Source: an uncultured bacterium (GTDB taxonomy: Bacteria; Chloroflexota; UBA5177; JANWHV01). From it: a stretch of DNA of 15,255 bases. The stretch is taken from contig CAWHAE010000013.1 of the NCBI GenBank assembly GCA_963827235.1, positions 1 to 15,255 on the forward strand. The letters run 5' to 3'. Of this stretch, positions 1 to 7,022 are shown piece by piece (positions within the stretch are counted from its first letter, which is position 1; the number at the start of each line of letters is the position of its first letter). Below the pieces are notes generated by a model. That model was not told the DNA's origin, did not search any database, and worked only from the letters and a program-made list of their open reading frames with translations. Position numbers and translations under genes: made by a program.

Positions 1-67
1 ACGACAATTAGATTTGCCGGTGGCGTCTTTGAAAGTTGCCGGTCAGTCGGGCACGTAGGTTGCCCGG
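1..67 (+). repeat. IS21-family left-end subterminal repeats (terminal TG lies just outside the window)
   Basis: TTGCCGGT at 14-21 and 36-43 (22-bp period) and a degenerate TTGCCCGG at 60-67, directly upstream of istA. IS21 ends typically carry multiple internal transposase-binding repeats. Confidence 0.6.
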
Positions 68-106
68 ATGACCAGACTGTGGCGTCCTCCAAGTACGGAG
101 GACGGC

Positions 107-1592
107 ATGAAGAAAGACGCTGAGGTGTGGATCTTGGAGAAGGAACGGAGCAAAGGAGCCACGCAGGTCGTGGCGGCGGCGCGGGCCGGGATGAGTGAGC
201 GCACCGCGCGCAAGTACGAGCAGGTCGGCAAGCTGCCCAGTCAACTCAAGCGGCCACGGCAGCATCGAACACGGCCCGATCCGTTTGCCAGCGAGTGGAG
301 TTGGGTCGTTGCGGAGTTGCAGCGTGATCCGGCCCTGCAAGCGGTGACGCTCTTTGGGCTCCTGCAGGCCAAGCACCCAGGCCGCTACCAGGAGGGCCAG
401 CTGCGCACCCTGCAGCGGCACATGGCCACCTGGCGCGCGGTGGCCGGACCGGAGCGGGAGGTGATGTTCGCGCAGGTGCATCGGCCCGGCGATCTCGCCG
501 AGTCCGATTTCACCCACATGAGCAGCCTGCAGGTGACGCTGGGCGGCCTGCCCTTTCCGCACGAGGTGTTCCACCTGGTGCTCACCTACTCGAACGTGGA
601 GGCGGCGCACATCTGTGTCAGCGAGAGCTTCGAGTCCCTGGCCGAAGGGCTCGAGTACTGCCTGTGGCAACTCGGCGGCGTGCCCCAGCGGCACAAGACA
701 GACCACATGGGCACGGCGGTGCGGCCATTGAGCGTGGCCGGCCAGGCGGAGTTCACCGATCGCTACCGGGCCTTGCTGGCGCACTACGGTATGGAAGCGG
801 CGGTCAACAACGCCGGCGAAGCGCACGAAAACGGCGACGTGGAACAGGCGCACCACCGGCTCAAACTGGCCGTCGACCAGGCGTTGCGCGTGCGTGGCAG
901 TCGCGACTTTGTCGACCGCGTCAGCTATGTCCGCTTCCTGGCGGAGATCGTGCGCCAACGCAATCTGACCCGGGAAGCACGCTGGCAGGCCGAGCGGGCG
1001 CTGCTGCGGCCCTTGCCCACGACACCGCTGGCCCCGTGCCGTGAGCTGCGCTGCACGGTCACCCACTACAGCACCATCCACATGCTGGAGAACACGTATT
1101 CCGTGCCCTCCCGCTTGATCGGCACGAAGGTGCTGGTGCGCCTGCATGCCGAGACCGTGGACGTCTACGTGGGCACCAGCCTGGTCTGCCAGATGCCGCG
1201 GCTCTTCGGCCGGCAGCAGCACGCCATCGACTACCGGCACGTCATCTGGTCCCTGGTGCGCAAGCCCGGTGCGTTTGCCGCCTATCGCTACCAGCACGAC
1301 CTCTTCCCCAGGCTGAGCTTCCGTCAGGCCTACGACCGGCTGCAGCAGGCACGGCCACGCCAGGCCGACCGCGAGTACCTGCGACTGCTCTCCTTGGCGG
1401 CCAGCACCGCGGAAAGCGAGGTCGACATCGCTCTGGACTTGCTGCTGGAGGCGCAGACCTTGCCGACCTTTGAGGCGGTACGGGAACTGGTGCGGGGGCC
1501 GCGGCCGGTTGCCGTGCCGGCCGTGAGCACGCCTAGCCTGAGATCTGACGCGCTATGACCAGTTGCTCCCCTCGAGGTGCCGCCATGCCTAA
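107..1592 (+). CDS. istA: IS21-family DDE transposase IstA, with a +1 frameshift near the C-terminus (as read, stops at 1558)
   Basis: GGAGGA RBS at 97-102 before ATG 107. N-terminal HTH (AAARAGMSERTARKY), DDE residues in ESDFT / KTDHMG / HENGDVE, and NTYSVPSRLIG. Deleting one base near 1541 gives the typical ending LDLTRYDQLL...RHA* (TAA 1590-1592), which overlaps the istB ATG. Confidence 0.93.
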
Positions 1593-2205
1593 CGTCCTGC
1601 CCACCATGGTCAATCGGCAAGAGCAGCTCCACCGCATGCTGCGCAGCCTCACGCTCACCCGCACGGCAGCCACCTTTGGCGACCAGGCCCTGCGCGCCGC
1701 GAAGGAGAACTTGACCCACGAAGCCTTCCTCTACGAGTTGGTCAGCCAGGAGTGTGAGCACCGCGCCCAGCAACGGGCCGTGCGCCGGCTGCGCCAGTCC
1801 GGACTGCCCCGGGAGAAGACGTTTACTACCCTCGACCTGGAGCACTTCAGCCCGGCGTTGCGGTTGGCGATCGAGCGGCTGCGCACCGGCGCCTTCCTGG
1901 AGGAGGCGATTAACGTCGTGGCGGTAGGCCGGCCGGGGGCAGGTAAGAGCCATGTCGCGGCCGCCATTGCCCACGATCTCATCGCCCACGAGTATCCCGT
2001 GCTCTGGCTGCCCACGGCCACCTTGGTGCAGCGGCTGCTGGCCGCCAAGCGGGACCTGCGCTTGCCCCAGGAACTGGCCCGTCTGGACCGCTTCCCCTGC
2101 CTCGTCCTCGATGACATCGGCTACGTCCAGCACGACCGTGATGAGATGGAAGTGTTCTTCACCCTGCTGGCCGACCGGTACGAGCGCCGCAGCCTGATGA
2201 TATAA
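1585..2205 (+). pseudogene. istB: IstB AAA+ ATPase, N-terminal part, truncated by the inserted element
   Basis: GAGG at 1574-1577 and ATG 1585. Walker A GRPGAGKSH, Walker B LVLDDIGY. Ends YERRSLMI*, with the TAA supplied by the inserted element exactly where ITSN is expected. Confidence 0.93.
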
Positions 2206-2297
2206 GTTACGTGGAATATGGGGATTGGCCGGGGGTGCGGCGGAGCGAGTGGCAGTAGAGTAGGCATGACAGGGTGGCACTGAGAGGCGGGGGCAGG

Positions 2298-3362
2298 ATG
2301 ACAGAGGTACGCTGGGACCGCTATCCGCTTGTCGCAGGCTATCCGGCCACACGCAGTTGGCTCTCCATCCAGGGTGCGGTTGGCCTTGCGCCGAATACCG
2401 TCGATGCGTATGGACGTGCGCTGCACGATTATCTCCGCTATTGCCGGGACCACGACATCGCTGCGGACACCGCCACGCGCGAGCATGTGGTGGGCTATGT
2501 GGGCGAGCTGGTTCAACGTCCCCATCCGCACGGAACAAACGTGGTGGCCTTCGACTCGGGCGCGGGACTCGCCAATGCCACACTGCAACAGCGTCTGGTG
2601 GCGCTTCGGCTCTTCTATGACTATCTGGTGGAAGAGGGACAGCGAGACGTGAATCCCGTGGGACGAGGGCGTTACACCGCCGGCAGGGGTTTTGGTGGTC
2701 AACGCGCACGAGGCTTGGTGCCCCGTTTTACCAAGCTGCCCTGGATTCCGAGTGACGAGCAGTGGCAGGCCATCATCGCCGCCATGCGGGAGGAATCCGT
2801 GCGCAATCGCCTGATGTTTGCGCTCGGGTATGATGCTGCCTTGCGGCGCGAAGAGTTGTGCGCGCTGTGCACGGAGGACCTGGATCCGGCCTATCGGACC
2901 GTGCGCGTGCGGGCCGAGACCACCAAGAACCGTCGGGAGCGCATCGTCCCGTACTCGGCCGTGACGGGGGAGCTGCTGCGTGCCTACCTTGCGCATCGCC
3001 GCACGCTCAGCCTAGCGCGAGGACCGCTCTTTCTGTCCGAATCCCGACGCAATTATGCGGCTCCCCTCTCGCTGTGGACCTGGTCGAAAGTGGTGCACGC
3101 GTTGGCGCTGCGTGCGAGCGTGCCCCAATTCTCTACCCACACCTTGCGCCATTTGTGCTTGACCGACCTGGCGCGAGCAGGCTGGGAGCTGCATGCGATC
3201 GCCACGTTCGCGGGCCACCGGAATCCAGCCACGACCCTGCAATACATCCACCTCTCGGGACGCGAGTTAGCGGAAAAACTGGCGCGGGGCATGGAACAGA
3301 TCCATGCCTGGCGTGTGCGCACGCTGACCGAGGCCGCTCAGGCCGTGGAGCCGGTCCGATGA
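2298..3362 (+). CDS. Tyrosine recombinase/integrase A (~354 aa, TnpA/XerD-like)
   Basis: N-terminal SAM-like region (LAPNTVDAYGRAL). Catalytic set R (LRREE), K (TTKN), HxxR (HTLRH), H (AGH), Y (LQYIH). Purine-rich RBS before ATG 2298. Confidence 0.93.
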   Translation: MTEVRWDRYPLVAGYPATRSWLSIQGAVGLAPNTVDAYGRALHDYLRYCRDHDIAADTATREHVVGYVGELVQRPHPHGTNVVAFDSGAGLANATLQQRLVALRLFYDYLVEEGQRDVNPVGRGRYTAGRGFGGQRARGLVPRFTKLPWIPSDEQWQAIIAAMREESVRNRLMFALGYDAALRREELCALCTEDLDPAYRTVRVRAETTKNRRERIVPYSAVTGELLRAYLAHRRTLSLARGPLFLSESRRNYAAPLSLWTWSKVVHALALRASVPQFSTHTLRHLCLTDLARAGWELHAIATFAGHRNPATTLQYIHLSGRELAEKLARGMEQIHAWRVRTLTEAAQAVEPVR

Positions 3363-5632
3363 GCCGATCCACGGCACCGGCCGCCATCACCTCCCTGGCG
3401 CTGGGTGAAGCGCTTCCCTGGACCTGGCCACTCACCCGTACGGTCTACGATCGCACGCCAACCCTCTCGGGCACGGAAGTGGACGTGCTGGTGGCCTTGG
3501 GTGACGACGTGCGCTGCTGGCGTGACGAGACCAGGCGATTTGTGCCGTTGCTCCGTCTCCTGCAGCCCTTGGTCGATGCGCGTGCTGCCCTTGAGGCTCA
3601 AACAAAGCATGGTCGGCATGCGGCGGATTCGGCGGTCGCGACGTTGTTGCATCACTGCCGCCGCACAGGATGCAGCTATTGGGGCTGGACGCCGGTGCAG
3701 TGGGTCGAGGTACTTGGCACGGATCAGGTGCGCTTTGTCGCTGCACACCCAGGCTGGGTCGACCGGTCGACGCGGTCCTACTTGATTGGGCTGGCCTATC
3801 TCTTGGGCTGCTTTGCCGATTTCGATGCGCTGGGCGGGTTCAAGCGGATTGCCGTGGCGGAGAAGGTCTTCGGGCAGGAGCGGGTGCGCACAGCGCTGCG
3901 CGCCATCGACACGGTGCTCTGTGGCTGGGGCTATAGCCCTGGACAGCCCGGGCGAGGACTGCCGGGCCTACTGGGCGAGTTGTTCCTGCGCAATGCCAGC
4001 CCGCAGCTTGCCGATCTCTCGCTCTCGTTGCTCGCGGCACAGCGCGCCGCGCCGGCCATCACGGCGGAAGATCATGCCCTGCTCTACCAGCTGCACCGAG
4101 GGCTCGCAGCCATGAACCTGCTGCCCTTTCCGTCGGCGCAGGGCGGCGTGTCCCCACCGGTGCAGGGCGTGGCGCCTGCCTGGTCCAGCTGGGTGACCCG
4201 CTGGGAGCGCACCTCCACCCTGGCCAGGGCGACGCGCCAGCAGGTGCGCACGTGCCTGCTCAAAATCGGACGCTGGCTCGCAGCCACCCGGCCAGATATT
4301 GAGGATCCCGCGGCTTGGACCCGCGATCTCTGCGCCGCGTACGTGGCCGCGGTCTCGGCCATGCAGATTGGCGACCACACCCAACGCACCACCGGTCTTG
4401 CCGGGCGGCTCGGGCAGCCCCTCTCTGCTCGTTCGCGCGTCGCGTACCTGGGCGCAGCACGCCAGTTCTTCCGCGATTGCCAGGAATGGGAGTGGATCCC
4501 ACGACGGTTTGATCCGGCGCGCGCCCTGGCGACGCCGCGCAGTATCAAGGCGCTCATCGGTCCCAACCCCCGGGTGATCGCCGACGACGTGTGGGCCAAG
4601 TTGCTGTGGGCAGGCATGAATATCGATGAAGCGGATCTCCCAATCGGTCGCACCGGTGGCCATCCGTATCCGGTCACACTGGTGCAGGCGCTGACGCTCA
4701 CCTGGCTCTTTAGCGGCCTGCGCAGTGATGAGATTGCTCGGCTACGCGTCGGGTGCGTGCGCTGGCAACGGGAGGACGTGCCGGTGCCAGCGCAGGACGG
4801 CGCCATCCTGGAGCAGGACGATGTCTGCCTGCTGGACATCCCGGTCCACAAAACGGGCACCGCGTTCACCAAGCCGGTTGACCCTGTCCTTGGTCAGGCC
4901 ATCACCGCCTGGGAACACGTGCGCCCGGACCAGCCGCCGCTGCTTGACCCACGCACCGGGGAACGCGTCCACTTTCTCTTCTGCTTTCGCGCCAAGCGCG
5001 TGGCCAAGCAATACCTGAACCAGACGATCATTCCGACGTTGTGTCGCAAGGCAGGCGTGCCGGTCGCCGATGCGCGCGGTCGCATCACCAGTCATCGGGC
5101 GCGTTCGACCATCGCCAGCCAACTCTACAATGCCAAGGAGCCCATGACCCTGTTCGAGTTGCAGGAGTGGCTTGGCCATCGGTCTCCCGCGAGCACCCAG
5201 CACTATGCCCGTATCACGCCAACGACCCTGGCCAAGGCCTACGCGGACGCGGGGTATTTCGCACGCAATGTGCGGACCATCGAAGTCTTGATCGATCGTG
5301 ATGCCGTGCAAAGCGGTGCCGCCACCGCCGGCGTGCCCTGGCAGTACTTTGATCTCGGCCCTGCCTACTGTACCTACAGCTTCTTCGACCAATGCCCCCA
5401 CCGCATGGCCTGTGTCCGCTGTGACTTCTGCGTGCCGAAAGACTCGAGCAAGGCGCACTTGCTGGAAGCCAAAGAGAATCTGCAGCATATGCTCGCCAGC
5501 ATTCCGCTCACGGACGATGAACGGGCCGCCGTGGAGGAGGGCGCCGATGCACTCGAGCGACTTGTGGCCCGACTGGCCGATGTGCCGGCACCGCGGTTGA
5601 CTGCTGCACCCCTCCCTCGGGCTCCGGTCTAG
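3359..5632 (+). CDS. Large tyrosine recombinase B (~757 aa, TnpB-like) with a C-terminal Cys cluster
   Basis: ATG 3359 overlaps the upstream stop (ATGA coupling). Catalytic set GLRSDE, VHKT, SHRAR, LGH, QHYA. Ends with YCTYSFFDQCPHRMACVRCDFC and a helical tail. Confidence 0.9.
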   Translation: MSRSTAPAAITSLALGEALPWTWPLTRTVYDRTPTLSGTEVDVLVALGDDVRCWRDETRRFVPLLRLLQPLVDARAALEAQTKHGRHAADSAVATLLHHCRRTGCSYWGWTPVQWVEVLGTDQVRFVAAHPGWVDRSTRSYLIGLAYLLGCFADFDALGGFKRIAVAEKVFGQERVRTALRAIDTVLCGWGYSPGQPGRGLPGLLGELFLRNASPQLADLSLSLLAAQRAAPAITAEDHALLYQLHRGLAAMNLLPFPSAQGGVSPPVQGVAPAWSSWVTRWERTSTLARATRQQVRTCLLKIGRWLAATRPDIEDPAAWTRDLCAAYVAAVSAMQIGDHTQRTTGLAGRLGQPLSARSRVAYLGAARQFFRDCQEWEWIPRRFDPARALATPRSIKALIGPNPRVIADDVWAKLLWAGMNIDEADLPIGRTGGHPYPVTLVQALTLTWLFSGLRSDEIARLRVGCVRWQREDVPVPAQDGAILEQDDVCLLDIPVHKTGTAFTKPVDPVLGQAITAWEHVRPDQPPLLDPRTGERVHFLFCFRAKRVAKQYLNQTIIPTLCRKAGVPVADARGRITSHRARSTIASQLYNAKEPMTLFELQEWLGHRSPASTQHYARITPTTLAKAYADAGYFARNVRTIEVLIDRDAVQSGAATAGVPWQYFDLGPAYCTYSFFDQCPHRMACVRCDFCVPKDSSKAHLLEAKENLQHMLASIPLTDDERAAVEEGADALERLVARLADVPAPRLTAAPLPRAPV

Positions 5633-5780
5633 TGGGCACTGGGCGATCCGATGCACTGCCACCGGCTATGCGCGTCAGTTCTGGGGCTACGCACGAAACG
5701 TGCTGCAGCGTCCCTGCGCACGCGCGCTGGAGAGCATGGCACCAGTCCCGAAAAACGATTGAACCTGTGTCTGGGGGTAT

Positions 5781-5857
5781 CCGGTGCGCCTTGGACAGAC
5801 GCGCTTGGACTTCCAGCCTACGGCGACACCCTCACCCGCGTCTGTCCAAGCGCCCGG
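5781..5857. repeat. Long inverted repeat/stem-loop in the element's 3' non-coding tail
   Basis: CTTGGACAGACGCG (5790-5803) and CGCGTCTGTCCAAG (5837-5850) are a perfect 14-bp inverted repeat with a 33-nt loop. Pairing extends with bulges to CCGG at 5781 and 5857. Confidence 0.8.
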
Positions 5858-6115
5858 CAGGCGATCTCCGCCGGCGGACCGACGAACACTGCTGGCGACT
5901 GGTCCAGTTGCGCGATTGGACGTCGTTTCACGGAGAACTGCTGGCCCGCGCGACTGGCCAGTTGCTCACCCCCTTCCTGTCACGTTGTCTATCCGCATCA
6001 ACGGCCAAATCTCCATGAGGCACCATGGACGAGGCAGCAGGGATGCACCGTTCGGCGACGGCGCCGCCCCGATACCTCTGCCGATAGCACCCGTTACGGT
6101 CATGTGACCAGGTAC

Positions 6116-6143
6116 TTGACACCCAGGGCTAATTCCACATAAT
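6116..6143 (+). promoter_or_regulatory. Putative outward-facing sigma70-type promoter in the element's right end
   Basis: TTGACA (6116-6121), 16-nt spacer, CATAAT (6138-6143). Confidence 0.55.
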
Positions 6144-6624
6144 CACCTCGAACAAGAGCCTGACCGACTGGGGCGCGATTGTCCAGGACGTCTCCTTGGC
6201 CGCCGCCCTGGTCGACCGCCTGATGGACGGCGGCCAGGTCTTCTATCTCAAAGGCCCGTCCTGGCGCACCAAGGACCTGCCCGACCCGCGCGCGGGAGCC
6301 CGGAGGGCACCCCACATGCGTAACGTGACGCATCAGCCGCAGGAAGTCAGCATGCCCCAACCCCGCCAACACGCTGAAAGCCGCCAAGCAACGCACCTAC
6401 CGCACACGCCAGACAAAAGGGAATGCCGCGGTCGTGCTGGCCACAGCCCGGCGCCGCGTGTGCACGTTGAGGCTAGCCAGGATGCAGCCACATGCACGAG
6501 CGAGCGGTGCGGATTGTCCCCCGAGCAGGCCCGTCGCCTCTGCGGTCACAATCTGACGCCGGACGAGTGGTGGCAGCACCTGGGGGCCAAACCTCTATCA
6601 CCAAACGTGCCCGGACTTGGCTAG
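6142..6624 (+). pseudogene. istB: IstB C-terminal part with an atypical ~110-codon extension
   Basis: ITSNKSLTDWGAIVQDVSLAAALVDRLMDGGQVFYLKGPSWR matches the IstB C-terminal pattern (TSN...W...D...A..DRL.HH......G.S[YW]R). The HH is replaced by DG. Confidence 0.85.
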
Positions 6625-6672
6625 GGACTCGACTGGGTTGCGACAGACCTGGTTGCATCATCTCTTCTGCGC

Positions 6673-6975
6673 CTACCTGCTGGAATCCTGGGCGAAAGCC
6701 ACTCTCGGTGCCGGCGACAGCGTGCACTGGGCGTTGGTGTAGCGGCCGGGAACGACGAGCGACACGCGGTCTCGAACATGCACCGTGGACTCCTTGATGT
6801 AGTTGCCCTTTCGATCCTCGACCGTCGACGATGAGGTGAGCATTGCCTCCCGACTGCGCGTCAGGCGCATGTCATACACGGTGAGCACGAATCCGGCTGG
6901 CGTCCGAGCAATTCGAGTTACTGTTGCATCGACCTGTGCGCACATGGTATAGGCCGATCCAAGGTCGGGCGGCAT
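6673..6975 (-). CDS. Small hypothetical beta-rich protein (possibly DUF5666/OB-fold-like), probably 5'-truncated
   Basis: VDATVTRIA...FVLTVYD...LTSSSTVEDRKG...STVHVRDRVSLVV has the same pattern as the domain in 9942-10586. No clear RBS, and the start is uncertain. Confidence 0.35.
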   Translation of the reverse strand: MPPDLGSAYTMCAQVDATVTRIARTPAGFVLTVYDMRLTRSREAMLTSSSTVEDRKGNYIKESTVHVRDRVSLVVPGRYTNAQCTLSPAPRVAFAQDSSR

Positions 6976-7022
6976 GGCACGAGCGTGCGCGGCAGCTCTG
7001 TCGTGTGGGATGTCAATGCGCT

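Follow-up and report, generated by a model that had tools for sequence, protein, structure and literature searches.

The window, that is the whole 15,255 bp contig CAWHAE010000013.1 (contig C13) of an uncultured Chloroflexota bacterium, carries a 3,942 bp element with two tyrosine recombinase genes inside istB, the helper gene of an IS21-type insertion sequence (IS). We interpret the element as a cargo-less, IS-like member of a TnpC-less family related to Tn554, inserted site-specifically at the I-T-S-N codons of istB, and put the probability of this reading at roughly 80%.

istB is cut exactly at a conserved motif

The source genome comprises 8 Mb in 21 contigs with 65% G+C. The IS21-type element stands first on its contig, only 67 nt preceding istA. 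The features at the insertion are as follows.

68 to 1558, + strand: istA of the IS21-family host element; 496 amino acids, with Pfam Mu-transpos_C_2, weak rve and a helix-turn-helix (HTH) domain
1585 to 2200, + strand: N-terminal part of istB, ending with the first base of the Ile codon in ..SLMI
2201 to 6142, + strand: two-recombinase element, 3,942 bp, delimited by frame restoration, family-wide ends and an empty paralogous site in a relative
6143 to 6148, + strand: TCACCT, the 6 bp at the centre of the target (codons I-T-S), kept at the right junction of the element
6143 to 6624, + strand: C-terminal part of istB; frame open to 6624, IstB homology over approximately the first 45 codons

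Both host genes matched Pfam and NCBIfam models, istA being followed by the AAA+ helper istB as in IS21. The N-terminal part of istB, whose last residues are ..YERRSLMI, covers positions 3-190 of Pfam IstB_IS21 and 1-188 of NCBIfam IS21_help_AAA; the C-terminal part, read from 6145 and beginning TSNKSLTDWG, covers positions 191-234 and 189-231 of the same profiles. Since the two halves match adjacent profile positions (190 and 191), the gene was cut there with no residue lost or duplicated, and the split between SLMI and TSN claimed in an earlier note on this DNA is borne out. Joining 1585-2201 to 6144-6624 gives an uninterrupted frame of 1,098 nt, or 365 codons and a stop. After removal of the 3,942 bp it reads ..YERRSLMITSNKS.., with YERRSLMITSNKSLTDWG across the join. 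The earlier note had described a restored gene of 366 codons. The open frame stands; however, likeness to IstB is limited to the first 45-50 codons or so past the join, the last 110 or so (6290-6624) are without IstB homology, and the coding-type GC phase of the frame fades after about 6300. Because the istB 3′ end is aberrant and a repeat search found no IS21 terminal repeats, the host IS21 copy may be truncated, decayed or otherwise not intact.

The dinucleotide AT at 2200-2201 recurs at 6142-6143, and the boundary can therefore be drawn in three ways, with an ambiguity of up to 2 nt. The ends of the family and the empty paralogous site favour 2201-6142 over 2202-6143, with which the window copy taken by itself agrees just as well. 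Contigs of public sequencing runs end or begin at 2198/2200.

Two coupled recombinases between short ends

Within the element the following features were recognised.

2201 to 2206, + strand: element-borne 6-mer TATAAG, adjoining the left repeat (family consensus TAnnAG)
2207 to 2217, + strand: left terminal repeat TTACGTGGAAT, near-invariant across clades and an imperfect inverse of the right end
2298 to 3362, + strand: short tyrosine recombinase, TnpA-like; 354 amino acids from the ATG, 362 from a GTG at 2274
3359 to 5632, + strand: long tyrosine recombinase, TnpB-like; 757 amino acids, PF00589
5633 to 6142, + strand: non-coding tail including the right end; 510 bp, no tnpC-like gene
6116 to 6143, + strand: outward sigma-70-like promoter, TTGACA-16 nt-CATAAT, spanning the right end; 11/12 positions match
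6132 to 6142, + strand: right terminal repeat ATTCCACATAA (in relatives ATTCCACA(G/T)AA)

The two recombinase genes are co-oriented and joined by an ATGA overlap. The short protein matches PF00589 (4.8e-28) and PF02899, covering SAM-like and catalytic domains, and its residues R183, K210, H281, R284, H307 and Y316 (numbered from the ATG at 2298) are invariant across aligned relatives. In the long protein R455, K498, H579, R582 and H607 are likewise invariant, and Y616 is present in at least 90% of rows. The two coupled, cargo-less recombinases with full R-K-HxxR-H-Y sets described beforehand were thus confirmed. No third gene had been evident either, and a tnpC-like open reading frame (ORF) looked for in 5633-6131 was not found: the tail (5633-6142) matched nothing in Pfam or NCBIfam, blastn and tblastx detected no similarity to its counterparts in 26 long-tailed relatives, and GC content is 0.57-0.73 in all three codon phases for segments starting at 5661-5961. 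Repeat searches detected no long terminal repeats; the 11-bp ends were recognised solely through relatives. The promoter is the only such match in 2100-6300, where 0.3 would be expected.

Past the catalytic tyrosine of the long recombinase lies a Cys/His cluster (C671, C679, H681, C685 and C688; window 5369-5422), present in 20/20 aligned relatives. It may form a zinc-binding module; confidence of the structure model is low at this point.

A family with near-constant ends

A search for relatives of the long protein gave 2,083 at E <= 1e-3 among 8,000 candidates scored, mostly 55-62% identical, many of them on contigs of 3.4-4.0 kb. Loci were confirmed in one-genome-per-species contigs (528) and in metagenome contigs (590), and 80 were fetched from each collection, giving 160 loci and, with the window, 161 sources. 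A short gene 60-72% identical to that of the window sits directly upstream of the long gene in nearly all 80 genome loci. Both ends were found, 3.3-5.2 kb apart, in 98 of the 161 sources, hereafter the two-ended set. Alignment of the flanks showed a left end made of the 6-mer TAnnAG followed by TTACGTGGAAT, and a right end of the form ..TTGACA..GATTCCACA(G/T)AA with the consensus ATTCCACAKAA. The left 6-mer is present in 98/98 two-ended loci, most commonly as TATCAG (25), TATTAG (21), TAAAAG (20) or TATAAG (14), and TTGAC[AGT] stands exactly 17 nt from the right end in 66/98 relatives. Several isolate assemblies include a contig that equals the element to within 1-2 nt, as would be expected of a dispersed repeat with copies that differ just beyond these ends.

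A metagenome scan with the window protein found no locus closer than 61% identity; the protein relatives P0005-P0007 are at 97% and 75% identity, and a protein atlas search returned only generic 'tyrosine recombinase' clusters. The long protein occurs in 13/400 other genomes of the host phylum and in 0/4 of the same genus, a sporadic presence which fits horizontal spread.

The same istB site has been struck repeatedly

It had been proposed that homologous elements would map repeatedly to the TSN codons of istB. For the window's own lineage the flanks agree, at profile positions 189-191. In L167 (52% identical) the junction lies between ..CCACATAA and TCACCAGCAAC.., encoding I-TSNLEFSRWGEV, and the flank begins at IstB profile position 191. 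In L166 (61% identical) the N-terminal part of IstB (..RRYDRGAVI) stops at profile position 189 and is followed by a variant left end. In the metagenomic P0064 (63% identical) the recombinase ORF reads out of the element into ..TITSQLP.., profile positions 189-236. L169 (69% identical over the part compared) has the opposite orientation: the reverse strand of its right flank reads ..AERYERRSVAIS, and its junction is 6 nt further along than that of the window, in an istB that is otherwise decayed. Flanks and recombinases of these cases are just 50-69% identical. By these alignments the window lineage has inserted at this one site of istB on at least four further occasions, in one orientation or the other and with the central 6 bp shared.

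In a tree of the long protein the window is placed beside a clade targeting recombinase genes, with a support of 99 and on a long branch. A second tree unites the window with P0064, L169, L175 and nine proteins of no available context in one clade (support 99), and L167 falls outside it on a long branch. The proposal of istB as the target therefore stands for the window lineage (L166, L167, P0064 and L169) but not for the family, most relatives being found in other transposase genes in a clade-specific manner.

Relatives occupy fixed codons of other transposition genes

For the 98 two-ended loci the flanks were joined in silico and six frames were scanned for conserved peptide motifs. The flanks of 14 were too short to be scored, leaving 84 loci, and 71 of these lie at fixed codons of conserved transposase or recombinase motifs, distributed as follows (a stroke marks the junction).

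25 loci: ISL3 C-terminal motif (..EGxxNxI/KxxKR)
15 loci: IS3, just before the first catalytic Asp (..WLY/LAxVxD)
9 loci: Tn3-family transposase
7 loci: tyrosine recombinase N-terminal domain (../L..L..FY)
4 loci: IS256 (GHFP/xEQA)
4 loci: IS5/DDE_Tnp_1
3 loci: ISL3 N-terminal site (GHRY/LTVVxD)
2 loci: IS630-like
1 locus: IS481/rve-like
1 locus: IstB, the window

Pfam searches of representative flanks confirmed rve, DDE_Tnp_Tn3, Phage_integrase, Transposase_mut, DDE_Tnp_1, DDE_Tnp_ISL3 and rve_3, the ISL3 target being confirmed on L035 and L114. The short flanks of L047 (ISL3 part), L129 and L107 (IS630 parts) gave no Pfam match; the last two are loci which we take to be IS630-like from our own recognition of the motif. 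Among the 13 unclassified loci, eight show one or both motif halves by eye (L017, L018, L073, L082, L091, L098, L105 and L112), L077 lies in an IS3 in reverse orientation (rve match) and L159 adjoins a transposase-type HTH protein. The suggestion that such elements parasitise other mobile elements is supported for the family.

The recombinases sort by target. The first tree was built with FastTree from the last 720 residues of the long protein for 93/98 loci, five with a longest frame of <700 amino acids being dropped. It contains an ISL3 C-terminal clade of 30 rows (25 ISL3 and 5 unscorable; support 100), a clade of 8 rows that targets recombinase genes (support 100), an IS256 clade of 5 rows and an IS5 clade of 4 rows, and 9/10 Tn3 rows fall together. 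A further clade of 28 rows (support 100) unites different families: all 22 scorable members (IS3, ISL3 N-terminal site, IS630, IS481 and L077) strike the strand that immediately precedes the first catalytic Asp in DDE transposases, and the flanks of the other 6 rows are too short to score. Target labels change 30 times on the tree against a mean of 61.5 when shuffled, a value as low being reached in 0/200 shuffles; as related sequences share labels, the test shows clustering and not independent events.

Two relatives, L003 (1141-5009) and L147, are nested in the short recombinase gene of another family member (..ANATLQQR/L..FYDF). The window's own short gene bears this target motif, ANATLQQRLVALRLFYDY.

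Crossover geometry and movement

Insertions in the ISL3 clade are antisense to the transposase gene in 23 cases and sense in 2 (L069 and L163). When the targets are aligned by codon, sense and antisense junctions are offset from each other by exactly 6 nt; whichever the orientation, the right end of the element adjoins the same six bases of the target. The istB pair formed by the window and L169 behaves likewise. From this offset it follows that the central 6 bp of the target would remain at the right junction with the element-borne 6-mer at the left, which fits a 6-bp crossover. A like asymmetry is described for Tn554-related elements and SEs (PMC10214605). Given TTGAC[AGT] at 17 nt from the right end and TAnnAG at the left, a circular joint would read TTGACA-17-TAnnAG. 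This arrangement might act as a promoter formed at the joint, its equivalent in the window lineage being TTGACA-16-CATAAT.

An empty site was found in a relative. The genome holding L047 and L049 was searched with the right flank of L047, and an ISL3 paralogue, L184 (83% identical), proved uninterrupted: in it the left flank of L047 continues directly into the right one. As L184 consists of both flanks abutted, insertion adds or removes no target bases. In the same search L183 had an ISL3 flank 83.3% identical to that of L047 around an element 99.93% identical over the 1,500 nt compared, so that the element moved on its own into diverged target copies. By these comparisons the element was recently mobile in that genome. 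At L047 and L049 the element is the same, and the surrounding ISL3 copies share 99% identity.

In the public runs, a contig of a soil RNA library (run X8, record 32; window 5641-6229) crosses the right junction into istB, as does a permafrost DNA contig (run X1, record 8; window 5659-6171). With 9-29 differences, these contigs represent near relatives of the same insertion in other samples. In a contig of run X3 the left end (from 2200) is joined to 232 nt of other sequence. The three joints listed in the public runs lie inside the IS21 part and have short sides. Separately, the left and right flanks of L105 and of L159 are reverse complements of each other, as expected if two opposite copies recombined and inverted the intervening DNA.

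The long recombinase as probable target reader

Conservation was compared by target group for 72 long and 70 short proteins in blocks of 30 columns. For the short recombinase the difference between within-group and between-group conservation is <=0.08 in every block. For the catalytic half of the long protein it is mostly 0.00-0.11, with one block at 0.22. The N-terminal 270 or so aligned columns of the long protein are conserved at 0.6-0.77 within groups and at 0.30-0.54 between them. The element ends are nearly invariant across target groups, while the targets differ. Taken together, these patterns make the N-terminal half of the long protein the probable reader of the target, and we infer that the short subunit serves the constant ends while the variable DNA-binding half of the long subunit selects the target.

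The long recombinase consists of an extra helical N-terminus (approximately 1-265), a core-binding domain (273-393), a catalytic domain (approximately 404-640) and the C-terminal Cys/His cluster. The predicted core-binding domain matches 3nrw (Z 12.1, root mean square deviation 2.1 over 99 residues), and the remainder of the model gives matches to Xer/Cre/Int folds, although the catalytic half of the full-length model is poor (predicted local distance difference test, pLDDT, of about 40-60). Modelled alone, residues 1-265 form two helical bundles at pLDDT 90. A Foldseek search with them gave no match at E <= 0.001, and a wide fold search gave Z values of 5.4-7.3, lower than those that chance alone can give for helical models. 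Several of these matches are recombinase core-binding domains, and the N-terminal modules are possibly core-binding-like. A complex prediction for the short recombinase with residues 270-757 of the long one scored 0.06 against a mark of 0.32, which speaks neither for nor against binding.

Tails, cargo and plasmid relatives

Between the long gene and the right end 26/98 loci have a tail of 340-1,686 nt, the 510 nt of the window included; long tails are exemplified by L029, L112, L103, L115, L008 and L032. Ten tail ORFs were tested, among them a DSP-type phosphatase, GNAT, SUKH/SMI1, a TIR protein, a methyltransferase and DUF4240. Four were without a Pfam match and none was TnpC-like; they appear as assorted passenger genes. 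In the window itself, the chromosomal genes downstream of istB encode an AlkA-like glycosylase, a histidine kinase, a GH116-like protein and a phosphodiesterase.

More distant relatives (33-43% identical) are frequent on enterobacterial plasmids, with 616 matching records, 167 of them from Klebsiella. None from Staphylococcus or Enterococcus was among the plasmid matches listed (40 and 60 of 616; the tally gives the ten commonest genera). Two were inspected, L083 (NZ_KP868647.1 27964-38078) and L084 (NZ_CP107149.1 47671-57683). One of the two carries CBASS genes, and one is located between mucB and mucA and has three passenger genes. In both, the left end TTATTTGGAAT abuts sequence that we read by eye as the GIKMG motif of umuC/mucB-type genes. 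A letter on tmexCD3-toprJ1 mentions two integrase genes and an insertion into a umuC-like gene (PMC11448381).

Proposed mechanism and alternatives

In the model that we propose, both recombinases would act together on a circular form whose joint consists of the right repeat, 6 bp and the left repeat. The short recombinase would handle the invariant ends and the long one would read the target through its fast-evolving N-terminal half. Strands would be exchanged across 6 bp that share no homology, in line with proposals for Tn554 and the SE elements, with the six target bases staying at the right junction. The TTGACA of the right end would then make a promoter either across the joint or out of the element. 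As the insertion breaks istB, this IS copy is presumably disabled, and the pay-off to the element would be a landing site that is harmless, abundant and horizontally travelling. The reactivation of the IS on excision that the earlier note supposed would be conjectural for a host copy which may already have decayed.

Several observations weigh against this interpretation or parts of it. The window element is single-copy in its own genome, where neither a second IS21 copy nor an empty site was found. Four public runs (contigs only) were compared with window 1-7000; no contig joins 2199 to 6143, and with parts uncovered this is no evidence either way on excision. The same contigs hold no circle junction. 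Within the window's own clade, L179 (2843-4226) lies antisense in istB just past Walker A, at profile position 108, with istA upstream. Elsewhere in the family, the deep-branching L131 (569-1243) interrupts an N6/N4 DNA methylase gene and no transposition gene, and L009 and L011 show only weak IS110 matches (E of about 0.005, not passing the cut-off). The left 6-mer, semi-conserved as TAnnAG, is no copy of earlier target cores, and the footprint model of Tn554 and SE elements thus fits in part. No obvious likeness or base-pairing between element ends and targets was seen in the aligned sites, whose central 6 bp vary. Finally, the roles given to the two recombinases derive from conservation patterns, and the trees are FastTree only, with the window and several phylum members on long branches.

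Three other explanations were considered. A chance landing, in which the element has little or no site preference and its position in istB is accidental, would be in keeping with a copy unique in its genome and with central bases that vary between targets, but it is highly improbable in view of four further independent istB insertions at profile positions 189-191, in different genomes and IS21 relatives, of the 71/84 relatives at fixed motif codons and of a recombinase tree that sorts by target. The exact, in-frame and scarless insertion also recalls reversible interruptions such as the sigK and nifD developmental elements, in which excision would restore istB and so regulate the IS; the recombinases are moreover co-oriented with istAB, making read-through from the IS possible. 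Such a gene switch is nevertheless unlikely: neither an empty site nor an excised form was seen in the sources named above, the family occurs in multiple copies and moves among genomes and targets, orientation in the ISL3 clade is opposite to the target gene in 23/25 cases, and in the IS21 copy that would be regulated the 3′ end of istB is aberrant and terminal repeats were not detected.

The copies might instead multiply mainly with their host IS elements, complemented in trans, and not by their own recombinases. L047 and L049 would suit this view, being possibly one copied unit of ISL3 plus insert. Against it stand L183, where a 99.93% identical element occupies an ISL3 83% identical while another 83% paralogue is empty, assembly contigs that break exactly at the element ends and not at the IS ends, and the presence of one clade in both orientations at one site. 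We consider it quite unlikely that the copies spread in this manner. Site-specific insertion by the element's own recombinases remains the reading that we prefer.

A broader proposal can be made only tentatively, and we rate it at slightly less than an even chance. The family may be a naturally retargetable system of hyperparasites, in which constant ends are combined with a modular N-terminal reader on the long subunit that has been re-tuned repeatedly to conserved sequences encoding motifs, in istB of IS21, ISL3, IS3/IS630/IS481 (first catalytic Asp), Tn3, IS256, IS5, IS110, recombinase genes of its own family and plasmid umuC-like genes. If this is true, the elements spread on other transposons and yet cripple them, and may limit IS expansion in soil bacteria. 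Abundant recombinase-only elements inside other transposons, at codons which those cannot afford to change, bear on the control of IS load and would account for numerous 'broken' transposase genes in the genomes of actinobacteria and soil bacteria. With ends that stay constant, targets that differ by clade and a variable reader, the elements would constitute a natural series in which tyrosine recombinase specificity has been switched, and the defined ends permit automatic delimiting of elements now labelled merely 'integrase'.

Relation to known systems

TnpC-less pairs of a short and a long recombinase were described as Tn554-related actinobacterial transposons by Van Houdt et al. (2012, Mobile DNA 3:6; PMC3414803). 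In the part of that paper available to us, the pairs (Famint36 and Famint41) comprise a protein of about 350 amino acids and an abnormally long one of 611-828 amino acids, adjacent and on the same strand, on actinobacterial plasmids and chromosomes. Identical copies are taken to suggest mobility, no ends or targets are given, and the long proteins are called 'less related' to Tn554, relatedness being stated as 'data not shown' (PMC3414803). The window element has the same sizes (354/362 and 757 amino acids), the same adjacency and no TnpC. Plasmid pRHL2 (NC_008270), listed in their table, matches a Streptomyces element of this family in two places, at 77.4% identity over 43% of the element. 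The earlier note's suggestion of a new element class is therefore not upheld, as such pairs were described in 2012 and pRHL2 there holds this family. The window copy differs from the described pairs in being outside Actinomycetota, deep-branching and istB-targeting.

In described features the element resembles Tn554 by its co-oriented short and then long recombinase genes and by site-specific insertion without target duplication (PMC10214605). The 6-bp core that Tn554 treats asymmetrically at the two junctions (PMC10214605) is matched in part: the 6-nt offset between orientations agrees with it, but the carried 6-mer is semi-conserved and keeps no record of earlier targets. Unlike Tn554, the window element is without TnpC or resistance cargo and has short terminal inverted repeats. 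The target of Tn554 is radC, which is not a transposition gene.

RIT-type mobile integrase cassettes of Bifidobacterium longum, three integrases 'sandwiched by two IS3-type IS elements' and so lodged inside an IS, are likewise cargo-less and carry tyrosine recombinase genes only (PMC2430713). They differ in having three recombinases of ordinary size, ends made of a 96-bp repeat and a palindrome and, in the portion of that report available, no targeting by motif or by clade (PMC2430713). RIT elements are defined by three consecutive recombinases; between the ends of the window element there are two recombinase ORFs. The SE, GInt and ILE elements share with it multiple recombinases, short imperfect terminal repeats, strong site specificity for a conserved gene and a spacer of 6 bp in a circular joint, which for the window element is predicted (PMC10214605, PMC4542609), and the three-recombinase ILEs insert at one position of rulB, giving a 3-bp repeat (PMC4542609). 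In contrast to the two genes of the window element, SEs need four (intA, tfp, intB and srap; PMC10214605), and GInts and ILEs carry large cargo and a fourth gene beside their three recombinases (PMC10214605, PMC4542609).

In the full-text literature no account was found of two-recombinase elements homing to transposase motifs; most subscription journals and supplements lay outside the search, and a prior description is possible. IS elements that target other mobile elements include IS5075/IS4321, in the terminal repeats of Tn21-type transposons, and the IS1111-attC group; they too exploit another mobile element as a safe place to land. Those are IS110-family (DEDD) transposases acting on non-coding repeats, whereas here tyrosine recombinases act on targets that encode motifs. 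Fixed motif-level targets in transposition genes, their switching by clade and the mapping of the switch to one half of the long protein appear to be undescribed, and within a known class of elements the window copy represents a new member, one that branches deeply and targets istB.

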